Source: an uncultured Candidatus Rokubacteria bacterium (GTDB lineage Bacteria > Methylomirabilota > Methylomirabilia > Rokubacteriales > CSP1-6). From it: a stretch of DNA of 64,000 nucleotides. The DNA is taken from positions 864,001-928,000 of the forward strand of contig CAVYTA010000006.1 of the NCBI GenBank assembly GCA_963771355.1, written 5' to 3'. Of this stretch, positions 26,328-37,709 are shown one piece after another; position 1 is the first letter of the stretch; each line of letters opens with the position of its first letter. The notes under the pieces are model-generated. The model had not been told where the DNA came from. It saw nothing but the letters and a program-made list of their open reading frames with translations, and made no database searches. The position numbers were made by a program, and so were the translations under genes.

Positions 26328-27644
26328 GTGGAGTCAGCCACGCGTCGGGCTCCGCTCGCCACGCTCCTCCTCCTCTTTGCGTTCTTCGCCGTCGGGGTCG
26401 CTTCGGGCGCCGCGCCCGCCCCGGTGGCGGTGATCGACATCGAGGGCGCCATCACCCCGGTGACGGTGCGCCTGGTCTCCGCCGCGGTGGAGCGCGCTCA
26501 GGCCGAGCGCGCCCAGGCTCTCGTCATCCAGCTCGACACCCCGGGGGGACTCGAGCGCTCCATGCGCTCCATCGTGCAGTCGATCCTCAACTCCGAGGTG
26601 CCGGTGATCGTCTACGTGGCGCCCACGGGTGGGCGGGCCGCGTCCGCGGGGGTGTTCATCACCATGGCCGCGCACGTGGCCGCGATGGCGCCCGCCACCA
26701 ATATCGGCGCGGCGCACCCGGTGGCGGTGGGAGGCGGCGGGCCGGACAAGGAGATGATGAAGAAGATCGAGAACGACGCCGCCGCCTTCGCGCGCACCAT
26801 CGCGGTGGAGCGGGGGCGCAACGCGGAGTGGGCAGAGAAGGCGGTGCGGTCGTCGGTGTCGGTGACCGAGCGCGAGGCGGTGAAGCTCAAGATCGTGGAC
26901 CTGGTGGCCGACAATCTGACGGACCTCCTGGCCAAGGTCGACGGCCGGACCGTGAAGACGGCGAAGGGGACGGTGACGCTCCAGACCAAGGACGCGTCCC
27001 TCAAGAAGATCGAGGTCAAGTTCCGCGACCGGTTCCTCGCGCTGATCTCCGACCCCAATATCGCCTACATCCTCATGATGGTCGGGATGCTGGGCATCTT
27101 CTTCGAGCTCTCCAATCCCGGCGTCATTCTGCCCGGCGTCCTTGGCGGCATCAGCCTCATCCTGGCCTTCTTCGCCTTCCAGAGCCTGCCCATCAACTGG
27201 GCGGGAGTGCTCCTCATCCTCTTCGGCGTGGCCCTGCTCATCGCGGAGATCAAGGTGGTGAGCCATGGCGTCCTCACGATCGGTGGCGTGGTGGCCATGC
27301 TCCTGGGCTCGATGATGCTCTTCGACGCGCCCGAGGCCGGCGGGCTCCGCGTCTCCTGGTTTGTGATCGTGCCCGCGGTGGCCTCCACGGCGGGTCTGGT
27401 GGTGGTCGGCCTCACCTTCGGAATGCGGGCGCTGTACCGGAAGCCCACCACCGGCGAGAGTGGGATGGTCGGGGAGATCGGCGTGGTCAGGAGCCCGCTG
27501 GCCCCGGAAGGCCAGGTGCTGGTGCACGGCGAGCTCTGGCAGGCGATCGCCCAAAACGGGCCGGTGGCGGTCGGCGAGAAGGTCGAGGTGGTCGGGGTGA
27601 ATGGCCTCACCCTCACCGTGGTCAAGGCAGCCGACCGGCGCTGA
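26328..27644 (+). CDS. nfeD: Long-form NfeD membrane-bound serine protease
   Basis: Signal peptide, [22 protein letters not shown] block, C-terminal OB domain (G.V.V.GELW); followed by a slipin gene. Confidence 0.9.
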
Positions 27645-27663
27645 GCGCCGAGAGGAGAAGGAT

Positions 27664-28479
27664 ATGGGCGGCTTCGAGATGAGCATCGGCTTGATCCTGG
27701 TCCTGATTGTCGGCGTCTTCGTGATCGGCTCCTCGGTCCGCATCCTGCGCGAGTACGAGCGGGGAGTGATCTTCCGGTTCGGCCGGCGGGCGAACGCAGT
27801 GTTGAATCCCGGCGGCGACGGCTCGGGGCCGGGACTGGTGCTCCTCTTGCCCTTCGTGGACAAGATGGTCAAGGTGAGCCTCCGCACCATCACCATGGAC
27901 GTGCCCCCCCAGGACGTGATCACGCGCGACAACGTCTCGGTGAAGGTGAACGCGGTGATCTTCTTCCGCGTGCTGGACTCGGCCAAGGCGGTGATCAGCG
28001 TGGAGGACTACCTCTATGCCACCTCGCAGATCGCCCAGACCACGCTACGCAGCGTGCTCGGTCAGCAGGAACTGGATGATCTCCTCTCCTCGCGGGACAA
28101 GATCAACCAGGAGCTGACGCGCATCATCGACGAGCACACCAATCCCTGGGGGATCAAAGTGGCGGCGGTGGAGGTCAAGAACGTGGACCTACCCCAGGAT
28201 ATGCAGCGCGCCATGTCCAAGCAGGCCGAGGCCGAGCGCGAGCGCCGAGCCAAGGTCATCAACGCGGACGGCGAGTTCCAGGCCGCCGCCAAGCTCTCCG
28301 AGGCGGCCGACGTCCTCTCGCGCTTCCCCATCGCCATCCAGCTCCGCTATCTCCAGACCATGCGGGAGATCGCCTCCGAGCGGAACACCACCACCTTCTT
28401 CCCGGTGCCGGTGGATCTCCTGGGCTCGCTCCGGACCGTGCTGGGCACCGCGGACGGCCAGGGCGCCGCCAAGAGCTGA
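27664..28479 (+). CDS. Slipin/stomatin (SPFH) protein
   Basis: [57 protein letters not shown]. Confidence 0.93.
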
Positions 28480-28548: not shown

Positions 28549-28624
28549 GGGGGGTTAGCTCAGTTGGGAGAGCGCGGCGTTCGCAACGCCGAGGTCGAGG
28601 GTTCGACTCCCTTACCCTCCACCA
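28549..28624 (+). tRNA. tRNA-Ala (anticodon CGC)
   Basis: 76-nt cloverleaf: acceptor GGGGGGT/ACCCTCC with G3:U70, D arm GCTC/GAGC, anticodon arm CGGCG-TTCGCAA-CGCCG, T loop TTCGACT, encoded CCA. Confidence 0.97.
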
Positions 28625-30658: not shown

Positions 30659-30991
30659 GTGAGCGCCGACTGCGTATTCTGCCGCATCGTGGTCCGCCAG
30701 ACACCCGCCGATATCGAGTACGAGGACGATGAGGTCCTCGCTTTCAAGGACATCTACCCCAAGGCTCCGCTTCACCTCCTGATCATCCCCAAGCGGCACA
30801 TCGAATCGCTCGCGAGCCTGGACCCCGATGATACCGCCGTGATGGGACGCTGCATCCAGACCGCGCGAATCCTCGGAGCGCGCGCGGGCTATGGTGACCG
30901 CGGCTACCGCGTCTCCTGTAACGTGGGACCCGAGGGCGGCCAGGTCGTCTACCACGTCCACTTCCACTTGACCGCCGGCCGGCGGAAGTGA
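30659..30991 (+). CDS. HIT (histidine triad) nucleotide-binding protein
   Basis: DCVFCRIV, AFKDIYPKAPLHLLIIPKRH, GGQVVYHVHFHL. Confidence 0.93.
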   Translation: MSADCVFCRIVVRQTPADIEYEDDEVLAFKDIYPKAPLHLLIIPKRHIESLASLDPDDTAVMGRCIQTARILGARAGYGDRGYRVSCNVGPEGGQVVYHVHFHLTAGRRK

Positions 30992-31731
30992 TCCGCGTCC
31001 GCGGCCTGCGCAAGCAGTATCCGGGCGGCCCGGTCGCTCTCGACGGCGTCGACCTGGACATCACCGAAGGCGAGCGGGTGGCCCTCATCGGACCGAGTGG
31101 AGCCGGGAAGTCCACGCTCTTGCGCTGCCTGAACGGTTTCGTCCCGCCCACGGACGGCGAGATCCGGGTGGGAGGCGCGAACGTCACGGGCGCCACTGGA
31201 GAGCGCCTCCGGCTGATCCGCGCCGGGATCGGCTTCGTCTTCCAGCAGTTCAACCTGCAGCGCCGCCTCTCCGTGCTCGAGAACGTGCTGATCGGAGGGC
31301 TCGCGCGGGCGCCCCGGCTCCGCTCGCTGCTGGGCCTATTTCCCGTCACTGATACGGTGCGCGCGCGCGCCGCCCTGGACCGGGTGGGGCTCGGCGGGCT
31401 CGACGACCGGCGCGTGGACACGCTGTCCGGAGGGCAACAGCAGCGAGTGGCCATCGCCCGCGTGCTCGTCCAGGAGCCCCGGGTCATCCTGGCTGACGAG
31501 CCCATGGCCAGCCTCGATCCCGCGCTGTCAGAATCAATCCTCGCGCTGCTCCAGCGCATCTCGGACGAGGACGGCATCACGGTGGTGACCTCACTCCATG
31601 TCCTCGATCTCGCGCGCCGGTATAGTCGCCGCGTGATCGGCCTGCGCGGTGGCCGTGTGGCCTATGACGGCTCACCCGAGGACCTCACCGAGGCGGAGGC
31701 GCAACGCATCTTCGCCGCCGCCTCGACCTGA
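30988..31731 (+). CDS. phnC: Phosphonate/phosphite ABC transporter ATPase
   Basis: GPSGAGKSTLLR, FQQFNL, LSGGQQQRVAIAR, LADEPMASLDP, SLH. Confidence 0.88.
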   Translation: MIRVRGLRKQYPGGPVALDGVDLDITEGERVALIGPSGAGKSTLLRCLNGFVPPTDGEIRVGGANVTGATGERLRLIRAGIGFVFQQFNLQRRLSVLENVLIGGLARAPRLRSLLGLFPVTDTVRARAALDRVGLGGLDDRRVDTLSGGQQQRVAIARVLVQEPRVILADEPMASLDPALSESILALLQRISDEDGITVVTSLHVLDLARRYSRRVIGLRGGRVAYDGSPEDLTEAEAQRIFAAAST

Positions 31732-32480
31732 TGCGAGCCTCCCGCTGGGTGGGTTGGGCCGCCATCATCGGACTTTTCCTCTGGTCGGCGGCCGCGACCG
31801 AGCTCTCGGCCGGCCGGCTGATCGAGGGTTCCCCGTACATGCTGGACTTCCTCCGACGCATGGTCCCACCGGACTTTTCCGTCCTCCGTCACGCGCTCAC
31901 CGGCGCGATGCAGACCTTCCAGATCGCGGTGGTGGGCACCGGGATCGCAGCCCTCCTCGCGTTGCCGATGGGCTTTGCGGCGGCGCGCAATGTCGCTCCC
32001 TCCTGGCTCTTCTATAGTGCCCGCTCCGTGCTGAACGTGTTTCGCGCGATTGACACCCTCGTCTACGCGCTCTTCTTCGTGGCAGCGGTGGGACTGGGGC
32101 CCTTTCCCGGTGTCCTCGCGGTGGTGGCCTATACGGCCACCGTGCTGGCCAAGCTCTATTCGGAAGCGATCGAGGCCATAGACCGGGGACCGGTGGAGGC
32201 GGTGGAAGCGTCCGGGGCCACGCGCCTCCAAGTCCTTCGCTGGGGAGTGCTGCCTCAGCTCGTGCCGCAGTTCCTGTCGTTCACGCTCTACCGCTTCGAG
32301 ACGAACATCCGGGCGGCGGCAATCCTGGGTTTCGTGGGGGCGGGGGGCATCGGCTTCTACATCCAGACCTATCTACGCATGCTCAACTATCCGGCCGCCT
32401 CCACGGTGCTGCTTGTGCTGATCGTCCTCGTCATGGCGGTGGACTTCACGTCTTCACGATTGCGCGCACGTCTCGTCTAG
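31731..32480 (+). CDS. phnE: Phosphonate/phosphite ABC transporter permease
   Basis: GLGPFPGVLA, AKLYSEAIEAID, YRFETNIRAAAILGFVGAGGIG. Confidence 0.9.
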   Translation: MRASRWVGWAAIIGLFLWSAAATELSAGRLIEGSPYMLDFLRRMVPPDFSVLRHALTGAMQTFQIAVVGTGIAALLALPMGFAAARNVAPSWLFYSARSVLNVFRAIDTLVYALFFVAAVGLGPFPGVLAVVAYTATVLAKLYSEAIEAIDRGPVEAVEASGATRLQVLRWGVLPQLVPQFLSFTLYRFETNIRAAAILGFVGAGGIGFYIQTYLRMLNYPAASTVLLVLIVLVMAVDFTSSRLRARLV

Positions 32481-32481
32481 C

Positions 32482-32518
32482 AAAACAAAAGGCTCCAGGG
32501 GGTTGCCCCCCTGGAGCC
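32482..32518 (-). terminator. Intrinsic terminator of the repeat-protein gene
   Basis: 12-bp stem GGCTCCAGGGGG/CCCCCTGGAGCC, GCAA loop on the - strand, followed by TTTTGTTTT on the - strand. Confidence 0.85.
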
Positions 32519-32543
32519 CGGTGGATCAGGTTAATTCAGCGAC

Positions 32544-33967
32544 TTACTTGATCAGGTCCATGGCGGCCCGGGCCTTCTGGGACGCCAGGCTAGAATTACC
32601 GGCCTTGCACGCCGCCTCGGCCTCACGAACCAGCGAGGTGGCACGGGAGAAGTCGGCGCGAGGAGCGTTGCCGTCCTGCCCGCGCGGCGCGTTGACATCC
32701 TGCGTCCGGGGCGCGTTGACATCCTGCGTCCGCGGCGCGTTCACGTCCTGCGTCCGGGGCGCGTTGACATCCTGCGTCCGGGGCGCATTGACATCCTGCG
32801 TCCGCGGCGCGTTCACGTCCTGCGTCCGGGGCGCGTTGACATCCTGCGTCCGCGGCGCGTTGACATCCTGCGTCCGCGGCGCGTTGACATCCTGCGTCCG
32901 CGGCGCGTTCACATCCTGGGTGCGAGGAGCCTGCACGCCCTGGCTACGCGGGGCGTTCACGTCCTGGGTCCGGGGCGCGTTCACGTCCTGGGTCCGAGGA
33001 GCCTGCACGCCCTGGCTGCGGGGCGCGTTCACATCCTGGGTCCGGGGCGCGTTCACATCCTGGGTCCGGGGCGCGTTCACATCCTGGGTCCGGGGCGCGT
33101 TCACATCCTGGGTCCGGGGCGCGTTCACATCCTGGGTCCGGGGCGCGTTCACATCCTGGGTCCGAGGAGCCTGCACGCCCTGGCTGCGGGGCGCGTTCAC
33201 ATCCTGGGTCCGGGGCGCGTTCACATCCTGGGTCCGGGGCGCGTTCACATCCTGGGTCCGGGGCGCGTTCACATCCTGGGTCCGAGGAGCCTGCACGCCC
33301 TGGCTGCGGGGCGCGTTCACATCCTGGGTCCGGGGCGCGTTCACATCCTGGGTCCGGGGCGCGTTCACATCCTGGGTCCGGGGCGCGTTCACGTCCTGGC
33401 GTCCGGGGCGCGTTCACATCCTGGGTCCGGGGCGCGTTCACGTCCTGGGTCCGGGGCGCGTTCACATCCTGGCGTCCGGGGCGCGTTCACATCCTGGGTC
33501 CGGGGCGCGTTCACATCCTGGGTCCGGGGCGCGTTCACATCCTGGGTCCGGGGCGCGTTCACGTCCTGGGTCCGGGGCGCGTTGACATCCTGCGTCCGGG
33601 GCGCATTCACATCCTGGGTACGAGGAGCCTGCACGCCCTGGCTACGCGGCGCGTTCACATCCTGGGTCCGGGGCGCGTTCACGTCCTGCGTCCGCGCACC
33701 CGCCAGCGAACGGGGCGCCTGCACTTCCTGGGGCCCCTGAGCCCGCGGGGCGTTGACATCTTGCGTCCGCGGCGCGTTGACATCCTGCGTCCGGGCGCCG
33801 GCCAGCGACCGAGGCGCATTGACATCTTGCGTGCGCGCCTGACGCTGCTCGATCATCGACTTCGCCTGGGCCACTTCGGGCGGGCAGCTGGTCTGCGCCG
33901 AGCTGACCGACGCCGACAGCGACGCCATGAACACCACACTGGTCACCGTCGCCAAAACCTTCTTCAT
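32544..33967 (-). CDS. Secreted tandem-repeat protein (about 473 aa once two apparent +1 insertions at about 33400 and 33472 are removed)
   Basis: SD GAAAGGA; signal peptide MKKVLATVTSVVFMASLSASVSSA; QTSCPPEVAQAKSMIEQRQAR; repeat block; unique tail ADFSRATSLVREAEAACKAGNSSLASQKARAAMDLIK. The span of 1424 nt minus 2 equals 474 codons. Confidence 0.8.
32658..33832 (-). repeat. Coding tandem repeat, 24-nt unit: 47 APR-ending units (40 TQDVNAPR, 5 SQGVQAPR, 1 AQGPQEVQAPR, 1 GQDGNAPR) plus 2 SLAGAR
   Basis: Head-to-tail ACATCCTGGGTCCGGGGCGCGTTC-type units on the + strand with no spacers; counted from the translations. Confidence 0.95.
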
Positions 33968-34086
33968 GAGTTCCGTCCTTTCAAACTTGGTTAACTGCCA
34001 CCAACCTGCTTACACCGCCGCCGCTTCGAATCATTGGTCAGAGGCGATCCGCCGCTTGTCCGGCCCCAACCTCGCAAAGGAGACAA

Positions 34087-34102
34087 TGCAGATGCGGTGC
34101 CA
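34087..34102 (-). promoter_or_regulatory. Sigma54 (-24/-12) promoter for the repeat-protein gene
   Basis: The - strand reads TGGCACCGCATCTGCA (TGGCAC; GG-N10-GC), about 120 nt upstream of the ATG. Confidence 0.7.
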
Positions 34103-34130
34103 TAGGGGACTCGCGGGAGAAACCATTACG

Positions 34131-34143
34131 GATCAACGGTTTA
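34131..34143. promoter_or_regulatory. Putative IHF site upstream of the sigma54 promoter
   Basis: GATCAACGGTTTA versus consensus WATCAANNNNTTR (one mismatch), about 30-40 nt upstream of the -24 box. Confidence 0.5.
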
Positions 34144-34272
34144 CCGCCGGCCTGAGTCCTACGCCCCCTAAGCCGAGGGGCGTTCTGCCCGACCATCCCG
34201 CAGGCCCCCATTGCCAATCTGCCGCGGAGCTGGGGCGACGCTGCGCTCCTCCTGACTCGTGAATCCGGATAC

Positions 34273-34301
34273 TTGTGATGATACACGTGGGCTGCTAGGC
34301 T
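34273..34301 (+). promoter_or_regulatory. Sigma70-type promoter for the M16 peptidase genes
   Basis: TTGTGA, 17 nt, TAGGCT with extended TG; ATG 34310 lies 8 nt downstream. Confidence 0.5.
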
Positions 34302-34309
34302 TCACCACC

Positions 34310-35656
34310 ATGACCGGTGCCCAGATGGTAAAACCCTACTCCGTGGTGGCGATGATGAGCATCCTCTTCCTGGGCGCCTGCGCGGCTACCTCCCAGCTGC
34401 CGGCCAAGTCCGCGTCCAGTGGCCCCTCCCGCGAGGTCCTGGCCAATGGACTCCGCCTCATCATCCAGGAGCATCCCGCCAGCGACGTGGTCGCCCTTCA
34501 CGTCTGGGTGGGCGTCGGCGGCCGGGACGAGGCGCCCGCCGAGCGTGGATTCTCACACTTCGCGGAACACATGCTCTTCAAGGGCACCGAGCATCGCGCC
34601 CCCGGATTCGTGGACCGCGAGATCGAGACGGTGGGGGGCCGGACCAATGCGGGGACGTCGTGGGACTACACCTTCTACTACATCCTCCTGCCGGCCTCCC
34701 AGACGGTGAAGGGCATCGAGATCCTGTCCGACATGATCTTCAACTCGGTGTTCGACGAGCGCGAGCTTGCCCGCGAACGGGAGGTGGTATTCGAGGAGAT
34801 CCGACTCGGCGAGGACAACCCGCGCAGCTACCTGGGACGCCGGCTGTACGAGCTGACCTTTCGAGGAGACACTTACGGCTATCCCGTACTGGGCGACCGG
34901 GACATCCTGCGAGCGTCCAGCCGGGAGACGCTCCGAGGCTTCTATGCGCGGCACTACGTCCCGGACAACCTGACGCTGGTGGTGGTGGGCGCCGTCCGGC
35001 CGGACGAGGTTCGCGCCGCGGTGGCCCGCACATTCGCGGCTCCTCCCGCGCGGGGTTACCGCCGTCCGGTCCCGCCCGCGCCCCGCCCGCTTGACGAGAG
35101 CCACCGCGAGGTGCGCCCGCGCCCGGAGCGGCAGAGCTCGATCGGACTGGCCTGGCTCGCGCCGCCCCTCGGTGAGCGCGACATGTTCGCCACGGATCTA
35201 CTGGCGCATATACTCGGCGGCTCCGCGTCGTCCCGCCTCAACCAGACCCTGCGCGAGCGGCTGCGCCTCGTCACCTCGATCAGGGCCAGCTACTCGGCCC
35301 TGCAGGCGACGGGCGTGCTCAGCATTACCGCGCTCTGCGAGCCCGACGACGTCGAGAAGGTGGAGGCCACGGTGCTGGCCGAGGTGAAGCGGATCCAGGA
35401 CGAAGGGGTGAGCCAGACCGAGCGCGACCGCGCGGTCACCGCGGCGGAGAGCCAGCACGCCTTCGCGACCGAGACCGCCGAGGGGCGCGCCTATGCCTAT
35501 GGCTTCGCCGAGACGCTCTGGACGCTCGAGGGGGAGCTCCGCTACCTGGAAGGGATCCGCGGGGTGACGCCCGAGCAGATCCGGGGGGCGGCCCGCCGAT
35601 ATCTGAGCGCTGCGAATTCGCGGCTCATCCTGAACCCCCGGGACCGCGCGCGATGA
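34310..35656 (+). CDS. M16B zinc peptidase, catalytic subunit, predicted lipoprotein
   Basis: Lipobox-like SILFLGAC; HFAEHMLFKGT (HxxEH); NAGTSWDYTFY; EREVVFEE; HYVPDN. Start ATG 34310 or 34325. Confidence 0.9.
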   Translation: MTGAQMVKPYSVVAMMSILFLGACAATSQLPAKSASSGPSREVLANGLRLIIQEHPASDVVALHVWVGVGGRDEAPAERGFSHFAEHMLFKGTEHRAPGFVDREIETVGGRTNAGTSWDYTFYYILLPASQTVKGIEILSDMIFNSVFDERELAREREVVFEEIRLGEDNPRSYLGRRLYELTFRGDTYGYPVLGDRDILRASSRETLRGFYARHYVPDNLTLVVVGAVRPDEVRAAVARTFAAPPARGYRRPVPPAPRPLDESHREVRPRPERQSSIGLAWLAPPLGERDMFATDLLAHILGGSASSRLNQTLRERLRLVTSIRASYSALQATGVLSITALCEPDDVEKVEATVLAEVKRIQDEGVSQTERDRAVTAAESQHAFATETAEGRAYAYGFAETLWTLEGELRYLEGIRGVTPEQIRGAARRYLSAANSRLILNPRDRAR

Positions 35657-36954
35657 TCAGGCACCTCGTGGCCGGCGCGCTCCTCGCCGGTCTCGCCTTC
35701 GCCGGCCCGGCGCGCGCGGCCGAGCCCGTGGTCTTGCGCGAGCGACTTCCCGGTGGGCTCACCGTGCTCGTGCGCGAGAATCCGAGCGCGCCGGTGGTGG
35801 CGGTGTCCGTGCTCGTCCGCGTGGGCTCGCGGTGGGAGCGCGAGGACAATGCCGGCATCACCAATCTCATGCAGCAGGTGCTGGTGAAGGGCACGCGGAG
35901 CCGCTCGGCGCTGGCCATCGCGGAGGCGGCCGAGGACGTCGGAGGGGGCGTCAGCGCGTCGGGCGACACGGACGCTTCCGAGATCCGTGGCAGCGGGCTC
36001 TCGCGGCACTGGCCGCGGGTGCTCGAGCTGATCGCCGATGTAACCCTGCGCCCGTCGCTGCCGGACCCGGAGATCGACGCCGAGCGCCGGGTGGTGCAGA
36101 GCGCGCTGCGAAGCCGCGGGGATCAACCCTTCCAGCGTGCCTACGACACGCTCATGGAGCGCGTGTATGGCCCGCACCCGTACTCGCGGCCGGTGCTGGG
36201 CCGGACGGCCGTGGTGGCGCGCCTGGACCGGGCCGCGCTGCTCGAGCACTATCGCACCTTCTACCGGGCGGGACGGACCGTCGTGTCCGTGAGCGGAGAC
36301 GTCTCCGCGCCCGAAGTGGCGGCGGAGGTGCGACGCCTCTTCGCGGAGATGCCCCCGGGCGAGGGAAACGTGAGCGAGCCGTCGGTCACCCCCGTCACGA
36401 CCCCCGGGCGCGTGCGGGTGGCCCATCCCGCCGCCCAGGCCCAGGTGCTTGCGGGGACGGTCGGGCCCGCCATCGCGCACCGAGACTATGCGGCGGTGAA
36501 AGTGCTGAGCGTCGCGCTCGGCGGCGGCATGGCGGGGCGTCTCTTCACCGAGCTTCGGGACAAGCAGGGCCTGGCCTACTCCACCGGCGCGATCAACCCA
36601 TCCCGCGTCCATCCCTCGGTCCTCATCGCCTACCTGGGCACCGCCCCCGACAATGCCGAGCGGGCCGAGGACGGCATGCGGCGCGAGCTCGAGCGGATCG
36701 CCCGCGAGGCGGTAAGTCCCGACGAGCTCGCGCGGGCGAAGGCGTACCTTCTGGGACAGTTTGTCCTCGACCGCCGGACCAACGCGCGGCTGGCCTGGTA
36801 TCAGGCATATTTCGAATCGGCGGGAGTGGGCCACGATTTCGCCCGTCGCTACATCCGGGCGGTGGAGTCGGTCACCGTGGAAGACCTGCTGCGCGTGGCG
36901 CAAGCCTACCTGGCCGCCCCCGCATTTGTGAGCTTGCAGCCGCCCGCCCGTTAG
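35653..36954 (+). CDS. M16B peptidase, non-catalytic partner subunit, exported
   Basis: Signal peptide ...AGPARA; HxxEH replaced by NLMQQ; carries the R/Y motif RLFTELRDKQGLAYS; ATGA overlap with the upstream gene. Confidence 0.88.
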   Translation: MIRHLVAGALLAGLAFAGPARAAEPVVLRERLPGGLTVLVRENPSAPVVAVSVLVRVGSRWEREDNAGITNLMQQVLVKGTRSRSALAIAEAAEDVGGGVSASGDTDASEIRGSGLSRHWPRVLELIADVTLRPSLPDPEIDAERRVVQSALRSRGDQPFQRAYDTLMERVYGPHPYSRPVLGRTAVVARLDRAALLEHYRTFYRAGRTVVSVSGDVSAPEVAAEVRRLFAEMPPGEGNVSEPSVTPVTTPGRVRVAHPAAQAQVLAGTVGPAIAHRDYAAVKVLSVALGGGMAGRLFTELRDKQGLAYSTGAINPSRVHPSVLIAYLGTAPDNAERAEDGMRRELERIAREAVSPDELARAKAYLLGQFVLDRRTNARLAWYQAYFESAGVGHDFARRYIRAVESVTVEDLLRVAQAYLAAPAFVSLQPPAR

Positions 36955-36983
36955 GGCACTGCGCCACCGGCCGATCAACCGGC

Positions 36984-37709
36984 ATGTTTCCGCTCAAGGA
37001 CGACGTTCCCGGCCGCACCACGCCCTTCATCACCGTCGGCCTCATCGCGATCAACGTCGTCGTGTTCCTCTACCAGATCTCACTCGGTATCGAGGGCTCG
37101 ACGCCCGGCGGCGCTGTTCGCGAGCTCATCCTGGAGTTCGGCCTCACCCCCTGCCGGCTCACCGGTCACTGCGTCGATGCACCGCCGGGCCTGCCGTCGC
37201 CCTGGGTCACCATGTTCACGTCCATGTTCCTCCACGGCGGCCTCTTCCACGTCGGCGGGAACATGCTGTACCTGTGGATCTTCGGCGACAATGTCGAGGA
37301 TACGCTGGGCCACGGCCGCTTCCTGATCTTCTATCTGCTCAGCGGCGTGGCCGCCGCGCTCGTACAGACGATGGTGAGTCCGGCCTCCGCGATCCCGATG
37401 CTGGGGGCGAGTGGGGCGGTCTCGGGCGTGCTCGGCGCTTACCTGTTGCTCTTCCCGCACGCCCGGGTGCTCACCCTGCTTATCTTCGGGTTCTTCTTCC
37501 GCATGGTCCATATTCCGGCCGTCGTCGTGCTCGGCTTCTGGATCGTCGTGCAGGCCGTGAACGGCTTCTTGACCGTCACCGTCACCGCCGTCCGCGGCGA
37601 GTCCGCCGGGGGCGGGGTGGCGTGGTTCGCCCATATCGGCGGCTTCGTGGCCGGCATGGGCCTTCTTTTCGTGTTCCGCTCGCGGCGCGACCCGCGCGAA
37701 CCCTACTAG
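36984..37709 (+). CDS. Rhomboid intramembrane serine protease
   Basis: MFPLKDD, TSMFLHGG..HVGGNMLYLWIFGDNVED, GASGAVSG, VAWFAHIGGF. Confidence 0.93.
   Translation: MFPLKDDVPGRTTPFITVGLIAINVVVFLYQISLGIEGSTPGGAVRELILEFGLTPCRLTGHCVDAPPGLPSPWVTMFTSMFLHGGLFHVGGNMLYLWIFGDNVEDTLGHGRFLIFYLLSGVAAALVQTMVSPASAIPMLGASGAVSGVLGAYLLLFPHARVLTLLIFGFFFRMVHIPAVVVLGFWIVVQAVNGFLTVTVTAVRGESAGGGVAWFAHIGGFVAGMGLLFVFRSRRDPREPY

Follow-up and report, generated by a model that had tools for sequence, protein, structure and literature searches.

The locus considered here lies in a 64,000-nucleotide stretch of the genome of an uncultured Candidatus Rokubacteria bacterium (contig CAVYTA010000006.1, positions 864,001 to 928,000; hereafter, the window), where a gene for a protein made largely of Arg-ended repeat units stands divergent from genes for two M16-family peptidase subunits (M16A and M16B) and a rhomboid protease (Table 1). 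The original prediction had read these four genes as one candidate system, in which the exported M16 pair would release about 40 copies of an octapeptide from a secreted precursor. Our comparison of the locus across related genomes indicates that the repeat protein is a real, undescribed, stand-alone family, predicted to be exported; dedicated M16 processing is unsupported at the level of sequence comparison, while a looser periplasmic link to M16 peptidases is possible.

Table 1. Features of the repeat-gene locus in window coordinates, with candidate activators located by contig of the same genome (aa, amino acids; nt, nucleotides).
Feature	Position	Strand	Remark
Repeat-loop protein gene	32544..33967	-	473 aa if both +1 breaks are assembly errors; unbroken orthologues exist
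Predicted Sec signal peptide	33896..33967	-	24 aa, ends S-S-A; by eye; Ala at predicted cut nearly invariant
Cap helix 1 with first conserved Cys (C-P-x-E-V)	33830..33895	-	
Loop of 49 Arg-ended units	32658..33832	-	40 TQDVNAPR, 5 SQGVQAPR, 2 SLAGAR, 2 singletons; probably disordered
25-nt unit, first +1 break	33451..33475	-	Probably assembly error; base 33473 absent from one independent contig
25-nt unit, second +1 break	33378..33402	-	No informative coverage from independent runs
C-terminal helical hairpin with second conserved Cys	32544..32657	-	Predicted to close three-helix bundle with helix 1
Intrinsic terminator hairpin and T run	32491..32519	-	Directly 3' of repeat gene
Sigma-54 -24/-12 promoter motif of repeat gene	34087..34102	-	
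IHF-like site	34132..34143	-	Strict pattern in 18/40 loci
Two enhancer-like sites, GGCAGA[AT][CT]GCC type	34179..34223	-	87 and 121 nt upstream of promoter
M16A, M16B-family peptidase, active subunit (HxxEH...E)	34310..35656	+	Predicted lipoprotein
M16B, M16B-family partner subunit, R/Y motif, no HxxEH	35653..36954	+	Predicted exported
Rhomboid intramembrane protease	36984..37709	+	
HIT gene	30659..30991	+	Abuts M16A in sister family; marks ancestral insertion site
Candidate sigma-54 activator	C6:1605197		
Candidate sigma-54 activator	C6:2105771		PilR-like by context
Candidate sigma-54 activator	C6:578606		Beside glnB/amtB/glnA-like genes

The unit counts given originally hold when the array is read through two frame breaks: the 40 copies of TQDVNAPR comprise 37 exact units after splitting by regular expression, one within the first segment and two carrying an extra base, and the two singletons are AQGPQEVQAPR and GQDGNAPR. 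At the DNA level, the tandem array runs from 32665 to 33696 with a period of 24 nt and 42.9 copies. The 37 exact units are written in 14 distinct DNA versions, and since this synonymous variation touches all eight codons of the unit, selection acts on the protein sequence.

While the gene and its repeats are real, the secreted repeat protein is not encoded by a single open reading frame in the window, as two one-base insertions had been overlooked. The span from 33967 to 32544 measures 1424 nt, which is a multiple of three plus two, and because two of the units are 25 nt long, translation with table 11 yields a 192-aa product and a separate 282-aa frame. Among seven genomes of the same genus, the reading frame is unbroken in five, runs off its contig in one, and is also frameshifted in one (an assembly of 20 contigs). 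In an independent DNA run, base 33473 is absent from one contig (depth 12.3, for a single-copy depth of about 15, with 20-30 times the single-copy depth over the array in the same run), which makes an assembly error likely, yet unproven, at this one break; the other three independent DNA runs give scant coverage at 33473, and none bears on the second break. Each extra base blends the two codons with which the unit commonly begins, as would be expected of a consensus error, and we take both breaks as likely assembly errors, the second more tentatively. If the insertions were instead real, the gene would be a true pseudogene or a phase-off allele in the strain of the window, as the presence of two breaks, the second broken assembly in the genus and the lack of read confirmation at the second break would allow; however, the codon-merging form of the extra bases, the independent contig without the first of them, and an intact promoter, enhancer, terminator and downstream frame leave this only a slight probability.

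The protein consists of a predicted signal peptide (judged, as for the M16 pair, by eye and by hydropathy), a first cap helix, the repeat loop and a C-terminal hairpin. Exactly two Cys residues are found in 41 of 44 complete homologues, and a disulfide would join these two cap residues. AlphaFold2 modeling of a short homologue with an 18-row alignment gave a three-helix bundle, with a pLDDT score (predicted local distance difference test) of about 90 for the hairpin and of 44-48 for the loop, which, judging from such models, is probably disordered. The loop is of the Gln/Ala/Arg/Pro/Asp type, with almost no aromatic or other bulky residues and with xQD[VI]QAPR as its unit type; complete homologous genes carry from 3 to 44 units, in which lengths of 6-10 residues are mixed and 6-, 7-, 9- and 10-residue units are common. 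Fold searches with the cap returned only generic helical bundles (best Z 8.9, root-mean-square deviation (rmsd) 3.5), and in an Atlas structure search with the cap all matches fell under a template-modeling score (TM) of 0.35.

An alternative view of the loop is that its 8-residue units form a beta-solenoid or a gp5-type triple beta-helix, as a fiber or spacer whose caps pair within or between chains. The C-terminal frame scores 68.8 bits with PF22178 (Gp5_trimer_C), over the cut-off of 30.9, and shares the 8-residue period of the T4 gp5 C-terminal triple beta-helix; along the units, Gln, Val/Ile and Ala alternate in the way expected of an inward face, and single-sequence modeling of an intact same-genus orthologue produced a beta-solenoid with pLDDT 80-89. 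However, this was the one confident model of five (mean pLDDT 65 vs 41-50 for the other four), its fold search gave generic matches only (best Z 11.1, rmsd 7.8), and, according to PMC11795689, AlphaFold2 has been reported to produce confident but unrealistic solenoids for perfect repeats. In addition, unlike T4 gp5, the repeat protein has mixed unit lengths, a Pro in each unit and termini predicted to be stapled together, the aligned model of the short homologue leaves the loop disordered, and repeat-free loops exist, such that we consider a structural repeat improbable.

We came upon the repeat-free loops on querying 1.84 billion representatives with the hairpin profile, which returned 161 matches; among the best 150 of these, 68 are full-length two-Cys proteins, with at least two Arg units in 51 and none or one in 16. 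Several of these 16 have plain Pro/Gln/Gly-rich loops, while some are perhaps collapsed or frameshifted assemblies. We also observed cap paralogues (L272, L274, P0357 and P0362, in our locus and protein numbering) in which the loop is a non-periodic Pro/Gln/Gly-rich stretch without Arg units.

The C-terminal hairpin is detected in 111/126 genomes of the window's family and 0/16 of the sister family, with weak matches in 4/57 others, and the source names of homologues point to Rokubacteria/Methylomirabilota (a contig search with one short homologue found itself and one weak Streptomyces match, and is uninformative on range). In four of five outside genomes, the best hairpin-profile match is a loop-less three-helix protein, while the remaining genome gives a two-Cys protein whose loop is different and has Arg-ended units among its parts. 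The former are small exported proteins (CP...LH..G.H) resembling PF27144 (PA14_33160-like), which the Atlas lists as a near named cluster at 0.85; their similarity to the repeat-protein cap is weak (hhalign probability 6-9%), and the cap differs from them in having a second Cys in place of the His and an inserted loop. Our genome of interest encodes such a loop-less protein itself (82 aa, CP...LH..GKH, predicted to be exported, C7:426709; L259:7710-7958), with its gene about 5 kb from that of a sigma-54 response regulator, and this protein is a possible source of the cap. A locus from another family of the class (L284, G091:C128) encodes a two-Cys cap with three Arg-ended units and extra helices in a different loop, and the same genome carries a protease-rhodanese gene on another contig. 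In the literature within the scope of our search, which did not extend to subscription papers and supplements, we found no description of the repeat-protein family, of PA14_33160, or of bacterial periplasmic multi-core precursors.

The repeat gene also has regulatory elements of its own. The sigma-54 -24/-12 motif is present upstream of 48 of 59 homologues; on the opposite strand it appears in 1 of 59, and in shuffled sequence in 0.6%. It is accompanied by an IHF-like site, called by the IHF consensus. Enhancer-like sites occur at least once in 40/40 loci and twice in 26 of these. When the genome of the window was scanned with an enhancer site model, trained on these same repeat-gene loci, the repeat gene scored 31, followed by a site with a score of 20 that overlaps an activator gene's end, and all others scored 12 or less. 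No second credible target sharing the enhancer was seen among 325 promoter-like sites genome-wide; this enhancer is unusually well defined and single-target, which makes the inducing signal trackable. The divergent gap that had been put at roughly 340 bp measures 342 nt (33967 to 34310), and as the promoter, IHF-like and enhancer sites all lie within it, most of this shared DNA belongs to the repeat gene. Just after the stop codon, 34/34 loci have a strong hairpin, in most of them with a T run, and, having its own promoter, enhancer and terminator, the repeat gene is predicted to be a monocistronic unit; no regulatory element was seen to be shared between it and the M16 pair. Profiling of sigma-54 activators in five family and two sister-family genomes, which left out five activators of the window's genome, yielded three family-core candidates (Table 1), none of them assignable. 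Six listed RNA runs contain parts of the stretch, at shares of 0.13-0.60.

Turning to the other side of the gap, the M16 and rhomboid genes are of the kinds first proposed, at least as far as their motifs tell. M16A has HFAEH at residue 83, the distal Glu (VVFEE at 159) and a lipobox-like LGAC, as expected of an active lipoprotein subunit, M16B has the R/Y motif without HxxEH, as expected of an inactive exported partner (the R/Y motif being defined as in PMC12731061), and the rhomboid has GASG and a downstream His. The top solved relatives of the pair are 3AMJ (Sphingomonas SPH2681/2682) and 3HDI (Bacillus halodurans BHP), in which HxxEH and R/Y are likewise split; unlike these M16B heterodimers, the pair in the window is predicted to be exported. 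The score with the PqqF model is 71.8, for a cut-off of 320.

In the window's family, the gene order is HIT, [phnCE-like], [protease], repeat gene, [GGDEF], M16A, M16B, rhomboid and then the tlyA-like side, namely [nucleotidyltransferase/phosphomannomutase], tlyA-like, NAD kinase and recN (variable genes in square brackets). We hand-picked 39 loci for long contigs and genus spread, and dropped two (L064 and L104) at contig edges, to give 37 primary loci. M16A is directly divergent from the repeat gene in 26 of these and separated from it by a GGDEF gene in two more, so that the suspicion that the adjacency could be chance is not borne out. Nevertheless, neither the M16 pair nor the rhomboid is found at any of 36 paralogous or relocated repeat loci (five of which show under 2 kb upstream), and 9/37 primary loci, from eight genera, lack the complete pair next to a repeat gene that is itself intact. 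Retention of other neighbors is higher, at 33/35 for the rhomboid, 35/35 for tlyA-like (leaving out L056 and L069) and 33/33 for HIT, as counted by eye, and the M16 run is less faithful to the repeat gene than HIT and tlyA-like. Conversely, M16B and the rhomboid are each present in 14/16 sister-family genomes, where the repeat gene is found in 0/16 and where, in 16/16 loci with HIT visible, HIT abuts M16A to give a single HIT-M16A-M16B-rhomboid run. The peptidase and its supposed precursor thus do not occur together and only together, in the manner of PqqA/PqqF or AlbEF, and a dedicated system of the four genes is unsupported. Given that relatives lacking the repeat gene have the M16 genes, and that these are often missing where it is present, the two are probably neighbors by history.

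Some of our observations would nevertheless suit a dedicated M16A/B maturase that releases about 40 octapeptides, with the rhomboid in the same module. Beyond the 26/37 directly divergent loci and a further two of the same arrangement, the export signals on the pair track the repeat gene: a lipoprotein-like signal on M16A is found in 25/27 family loci vs 2/18 loci of repeat-gene-less genomes, and M16B export signals follow the same trend. Most family genomes list two M16B matches, compared to one in the sister family, and one relocated repeat gene (L091:2065-5809, L092) is placed immediately upstream of the gene for a single-chain M16 of 936 aa whose N-terminus is signal-like, an M16 present in only 23/126 family genomes. 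We note, however, that the relocated copy, seen in two close genomes, represents one event among 36 loci, that the lipoprotein M16A is also found in two genomes (94% and 84% complete) where no repeat gene was detected, and that the contrast in export signals probably reflects one loss of export within the sister family. Together with the M16 run predating or outliving the repeat gene, its loss at nine loci with intact repeats, its absence from the 36 others, and the lack of a visible shared regulatory element, this leaves a dedicated maturase with little weight in our assessment. The published biochemistry points the same way: in PMC12731061, M16 cages are described as breaking down peptides of 30-70 residues, a class into which prokaryotic M16B is suggested to fall, and a Sphingomonas pair cuts bradykinin and enkephalin, such that M16 cages would more likely destroy octapeptides than release them; moreover, a disulfide-closed loop of about 390 residues would offer no free end to such a cage. 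Genomes without the adjacent pair usually keep a second M16 pair, and M16 activity as such is therefore still possible after its loss. As a separate point, a rule placing Arg at position -2, as for mitochondrial processing peptidase, was considered for the APRSLAG spacer and dropped, as it misfits the main unit. We also observed that most M16 pairs of the sister family (L033-L051) seem to be without export signals on both subunits, so that one and the same operon seems to code for a peptidase that is cytoplasmic in the sister family and periplasmic in that of the window.

Another companion of the repeat gene is an HtrA-like protease with a signal, a trypsin-2 domain, one membrane helix and a cytoplasmic rhodanese-like tail, which lies 62-178 nt downstream on the same strand in at least 57 of 110 genomes and at least 25 of 38 genera (lower bounds, as 16 repeat, 46 protease and 20 rhomboid matches lie beyond the best 150). 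It is present at 22 of 34 inspected loci and absent from 12, including the window. Its range follows that of the repeat gene, with the protease in 121/126 family genomes vs 0/16 of the sister family, and the rhodanese tail in 117/126 vs 0/16. In 17/17 adjacent copies extracted, the tail contains an in-frame TGA in C-x-TGA followed by more than 40 conserved residues, with a short hairpin 16-31 nt after the TGA (L063:8395-9891 and 16 other adjacent copies), and selA and selB score over their cut-offs in 5/5 genomes. The read-through sequence scores 73 bits with NF041203, below the cut-off of 115. Rhodanese selenoproteins of the CxU type are catalogued in PMC9312934, while the trypsin-like selenoproteins described in PMC2398784 carry selenocysteine inside the protease domain, which is a different arrangement. 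Some unlinked copies have Cys, Ala, Ser or Thr at the TGA site; the copy in the window's genome (C7:512182-513804) is itself unlinked, falls in a separate supported subclade and has Ala there, such that selenocysteine has been lost in some copies. In three loci from small-genome genera (L124, L125 and L126), a second M16A-M16B pair is directly followed by a protease paralogue, with no repeat gene.

This protease, or another Arg-specific envelope protease, could in principle cut the loop, giving numerous peptides that vary at the N-terminus but all end in a fixed ...[VI]QAPR, to serve as a signal or nitrogen store and leave a disulfide-linked cap remnant. The units do look suited to this, as their C-terminal half is fixed and their N-terminal half variable, the residue preceding the Arg is Pro in 75% and Ala in 17% (Pro, Ala or Ser together in 96%), that following it is Ser, Gly, Thr or Ala in 86%, and the most common repeated substitution is Arg to Lys. 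The His/Asp/Ser triad of the co-inherited protease is intact, and thiovarsolins offer a precedent, with repeated APR cores freed by unlinked peptidases (PMC6511847). Against this, in alignments the protease groups with HtrA/DegP, between it and the repeat gene there are a terminator hairpin and, immediately ahead of the protease start, a -10-like element (by eye), it is missing from about a third of the inspected loci as counted above, and family members without Arg units exist. It also has no trypsin-type Asp before the catalytic motif, the residue used in the specificity rule. The eight other trypsin-fold motifs listed for the window's genome are all HtrA-like, with other Arg-specific protease families not searched. 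Judged from sequence, the protease is the phylogenetic partner and co-inherited neighbor of the repeat gene rather than a shown maturase, and we regard cleavage of this sort as rather unlikely.

Considering all of the above, our leading interpretation, in which we place just short of even confidence, is that of a stand-alone, sigma-54-induced exported protein that probably works uncut through a multivalent, disordered loop, with turnover by general envelope proteases following later. It builds on observations of the protein's anatomy, of motifs for promoter, enhancer and terminator, of gene order, and of presence and absence across genomes. A dedicated enhancer-binding activator would strongly switch on the repeat gene upon an envelope signal, after which the protein would be exported and oxidized, so as to present its long, probably disordered loop on a three-helix cap closed by the disulfide. 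The repeated Q-[AS]-P-R motif may then act as many weak binding or bait sites, with loop length setting the dose, before general envelope proteases turn the protein over; the M16 cage could join this turnover only once another enzyme has nicked the closed loop. In evolutionary terms, the M16 pair and rhomboid would form the older operon, into the upstream region of which the repeat gene was probably inserted, and the repeat gene and the selenocysteine HtrA-like protease gene probably entered the HIT-M16A gap together, in the family ancestor.

By analogy, the repeat protein is probably a multivalent periplasmic stress protein and most likely works like ZraP or CpxP, though it is no member of their family. 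As in the ZraP/CpxP/Spy group, it is a predicted exported helical protein, and it shares a sigma-54 promoter with zraP (PMC4987338); CpxP is described in PMC6737893 as highly induced and degraded by DegP/HtrA, which would parallel the HtrA-like protease co-inherited here. Unlike ZraP, Spy and CpxP, however, the repeat protein has no match to their Pfam or NCBIfam families, has a two-Cys three-helix cap with a repeat loop, and has no adjacent two-component genes. Several points weigh against the interpretation as an uncut stress protein: the stress control is drawn by analogy only, the terminal Arg is nearly invariant (278/285 distinct contexts after [QNE][AST]P) and, like the small residues after it, has the look of a protease site, one of the five single-sequence models is the solenoid, the export signals of both M16 subunits track the repeat gene, one relocated copy lies beside the single-chain M16, and the loci were hand-picked, with kin among them not independent.

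A further reading, which we think doubtful, is a neuropeptide-style precursor, sigma-54-induced and disulfide-capped, from which envelope proteases would yield up to 50 ...QAPR peptides per chain, and this in a lineage that is common among uncultured soil bacteria; as part of this reading, the HtrA-like protease or another Arg-cutter would nick first, and the exported M16 pair would trim or clear the products. Known repeat precursors resemble the protein in part. Kex2-processed repeat proteins have a signal peptide and repeats separated by dibasic sites; here the signal is present, but the units end in a single Arg. Like the thiovarsolin precursor VarA, whose cores are freed without a clustered protease (PMC6511847), the repeat protein has imperfect APR-core repeats, of the APR/GPR type; unlike VarA, it carries a signal peptide and a cap. 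Its score with NF033878 (VarA) is 32.7 bits, under the cut-off of 35, with no passing stretch. YcaO and TfuA were not found in the window's genome (99.8% complete), and they occur in one of five genomes searched, on another contig than its repeat gene. Since trypsin yields the same Arg-ended peptides, tryptic metaproteomics cannot show cutting in vivo.

Whichever of these accounts is correct, the repeat protein marks one family of uncultured soil bacteria, in which it is near-universal and as yet unnamed. Cutting would make it a multi-copy peptide precursor of the periplasm, a kind not found in the literature covered here; if uncut, it would be a natural disulfide-closed disordered loop that varies in length more than tenfold. 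The comparison of loci also illustrates that a conserved neighbor can be historical, as in the case of the M16 run, which is retained less faithfully than HIT or tlyA-like.

Finally, we note several features of the wider surroundings. A short repeat-gene paralogue is found at L087, L089 and L090 (and in part at L088) in a recurring cluster with genes for a 73-aa protein and for fructose-bisphosphatase-like, Lon-like and CBS-domain proteins (named by eye), and at L073 (G006:C10) a paralogue with its own sigma-54 motif is surrounded by recombinase-like and restriction-like genes, suggestive of a mobile island as its carrier. In the window, phnC- and phnE-like ATP-binding cassette genes (30988-32480), with no adjacent binding-protein gene, lie between HIT and the repeat gene, where such genes are inserted in several genera. 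An NfeD-SPFH membrane protease pair upstream of HIT (26328-28479) is retained in many family loci, such that the region holds several envelope proteolysis genes, and a tRNA-Ala (CGC) gene at 28549-28624 adjoins a variable block comprising an unknown 170-aa open reading frame, Usp and a LOG-like gene.

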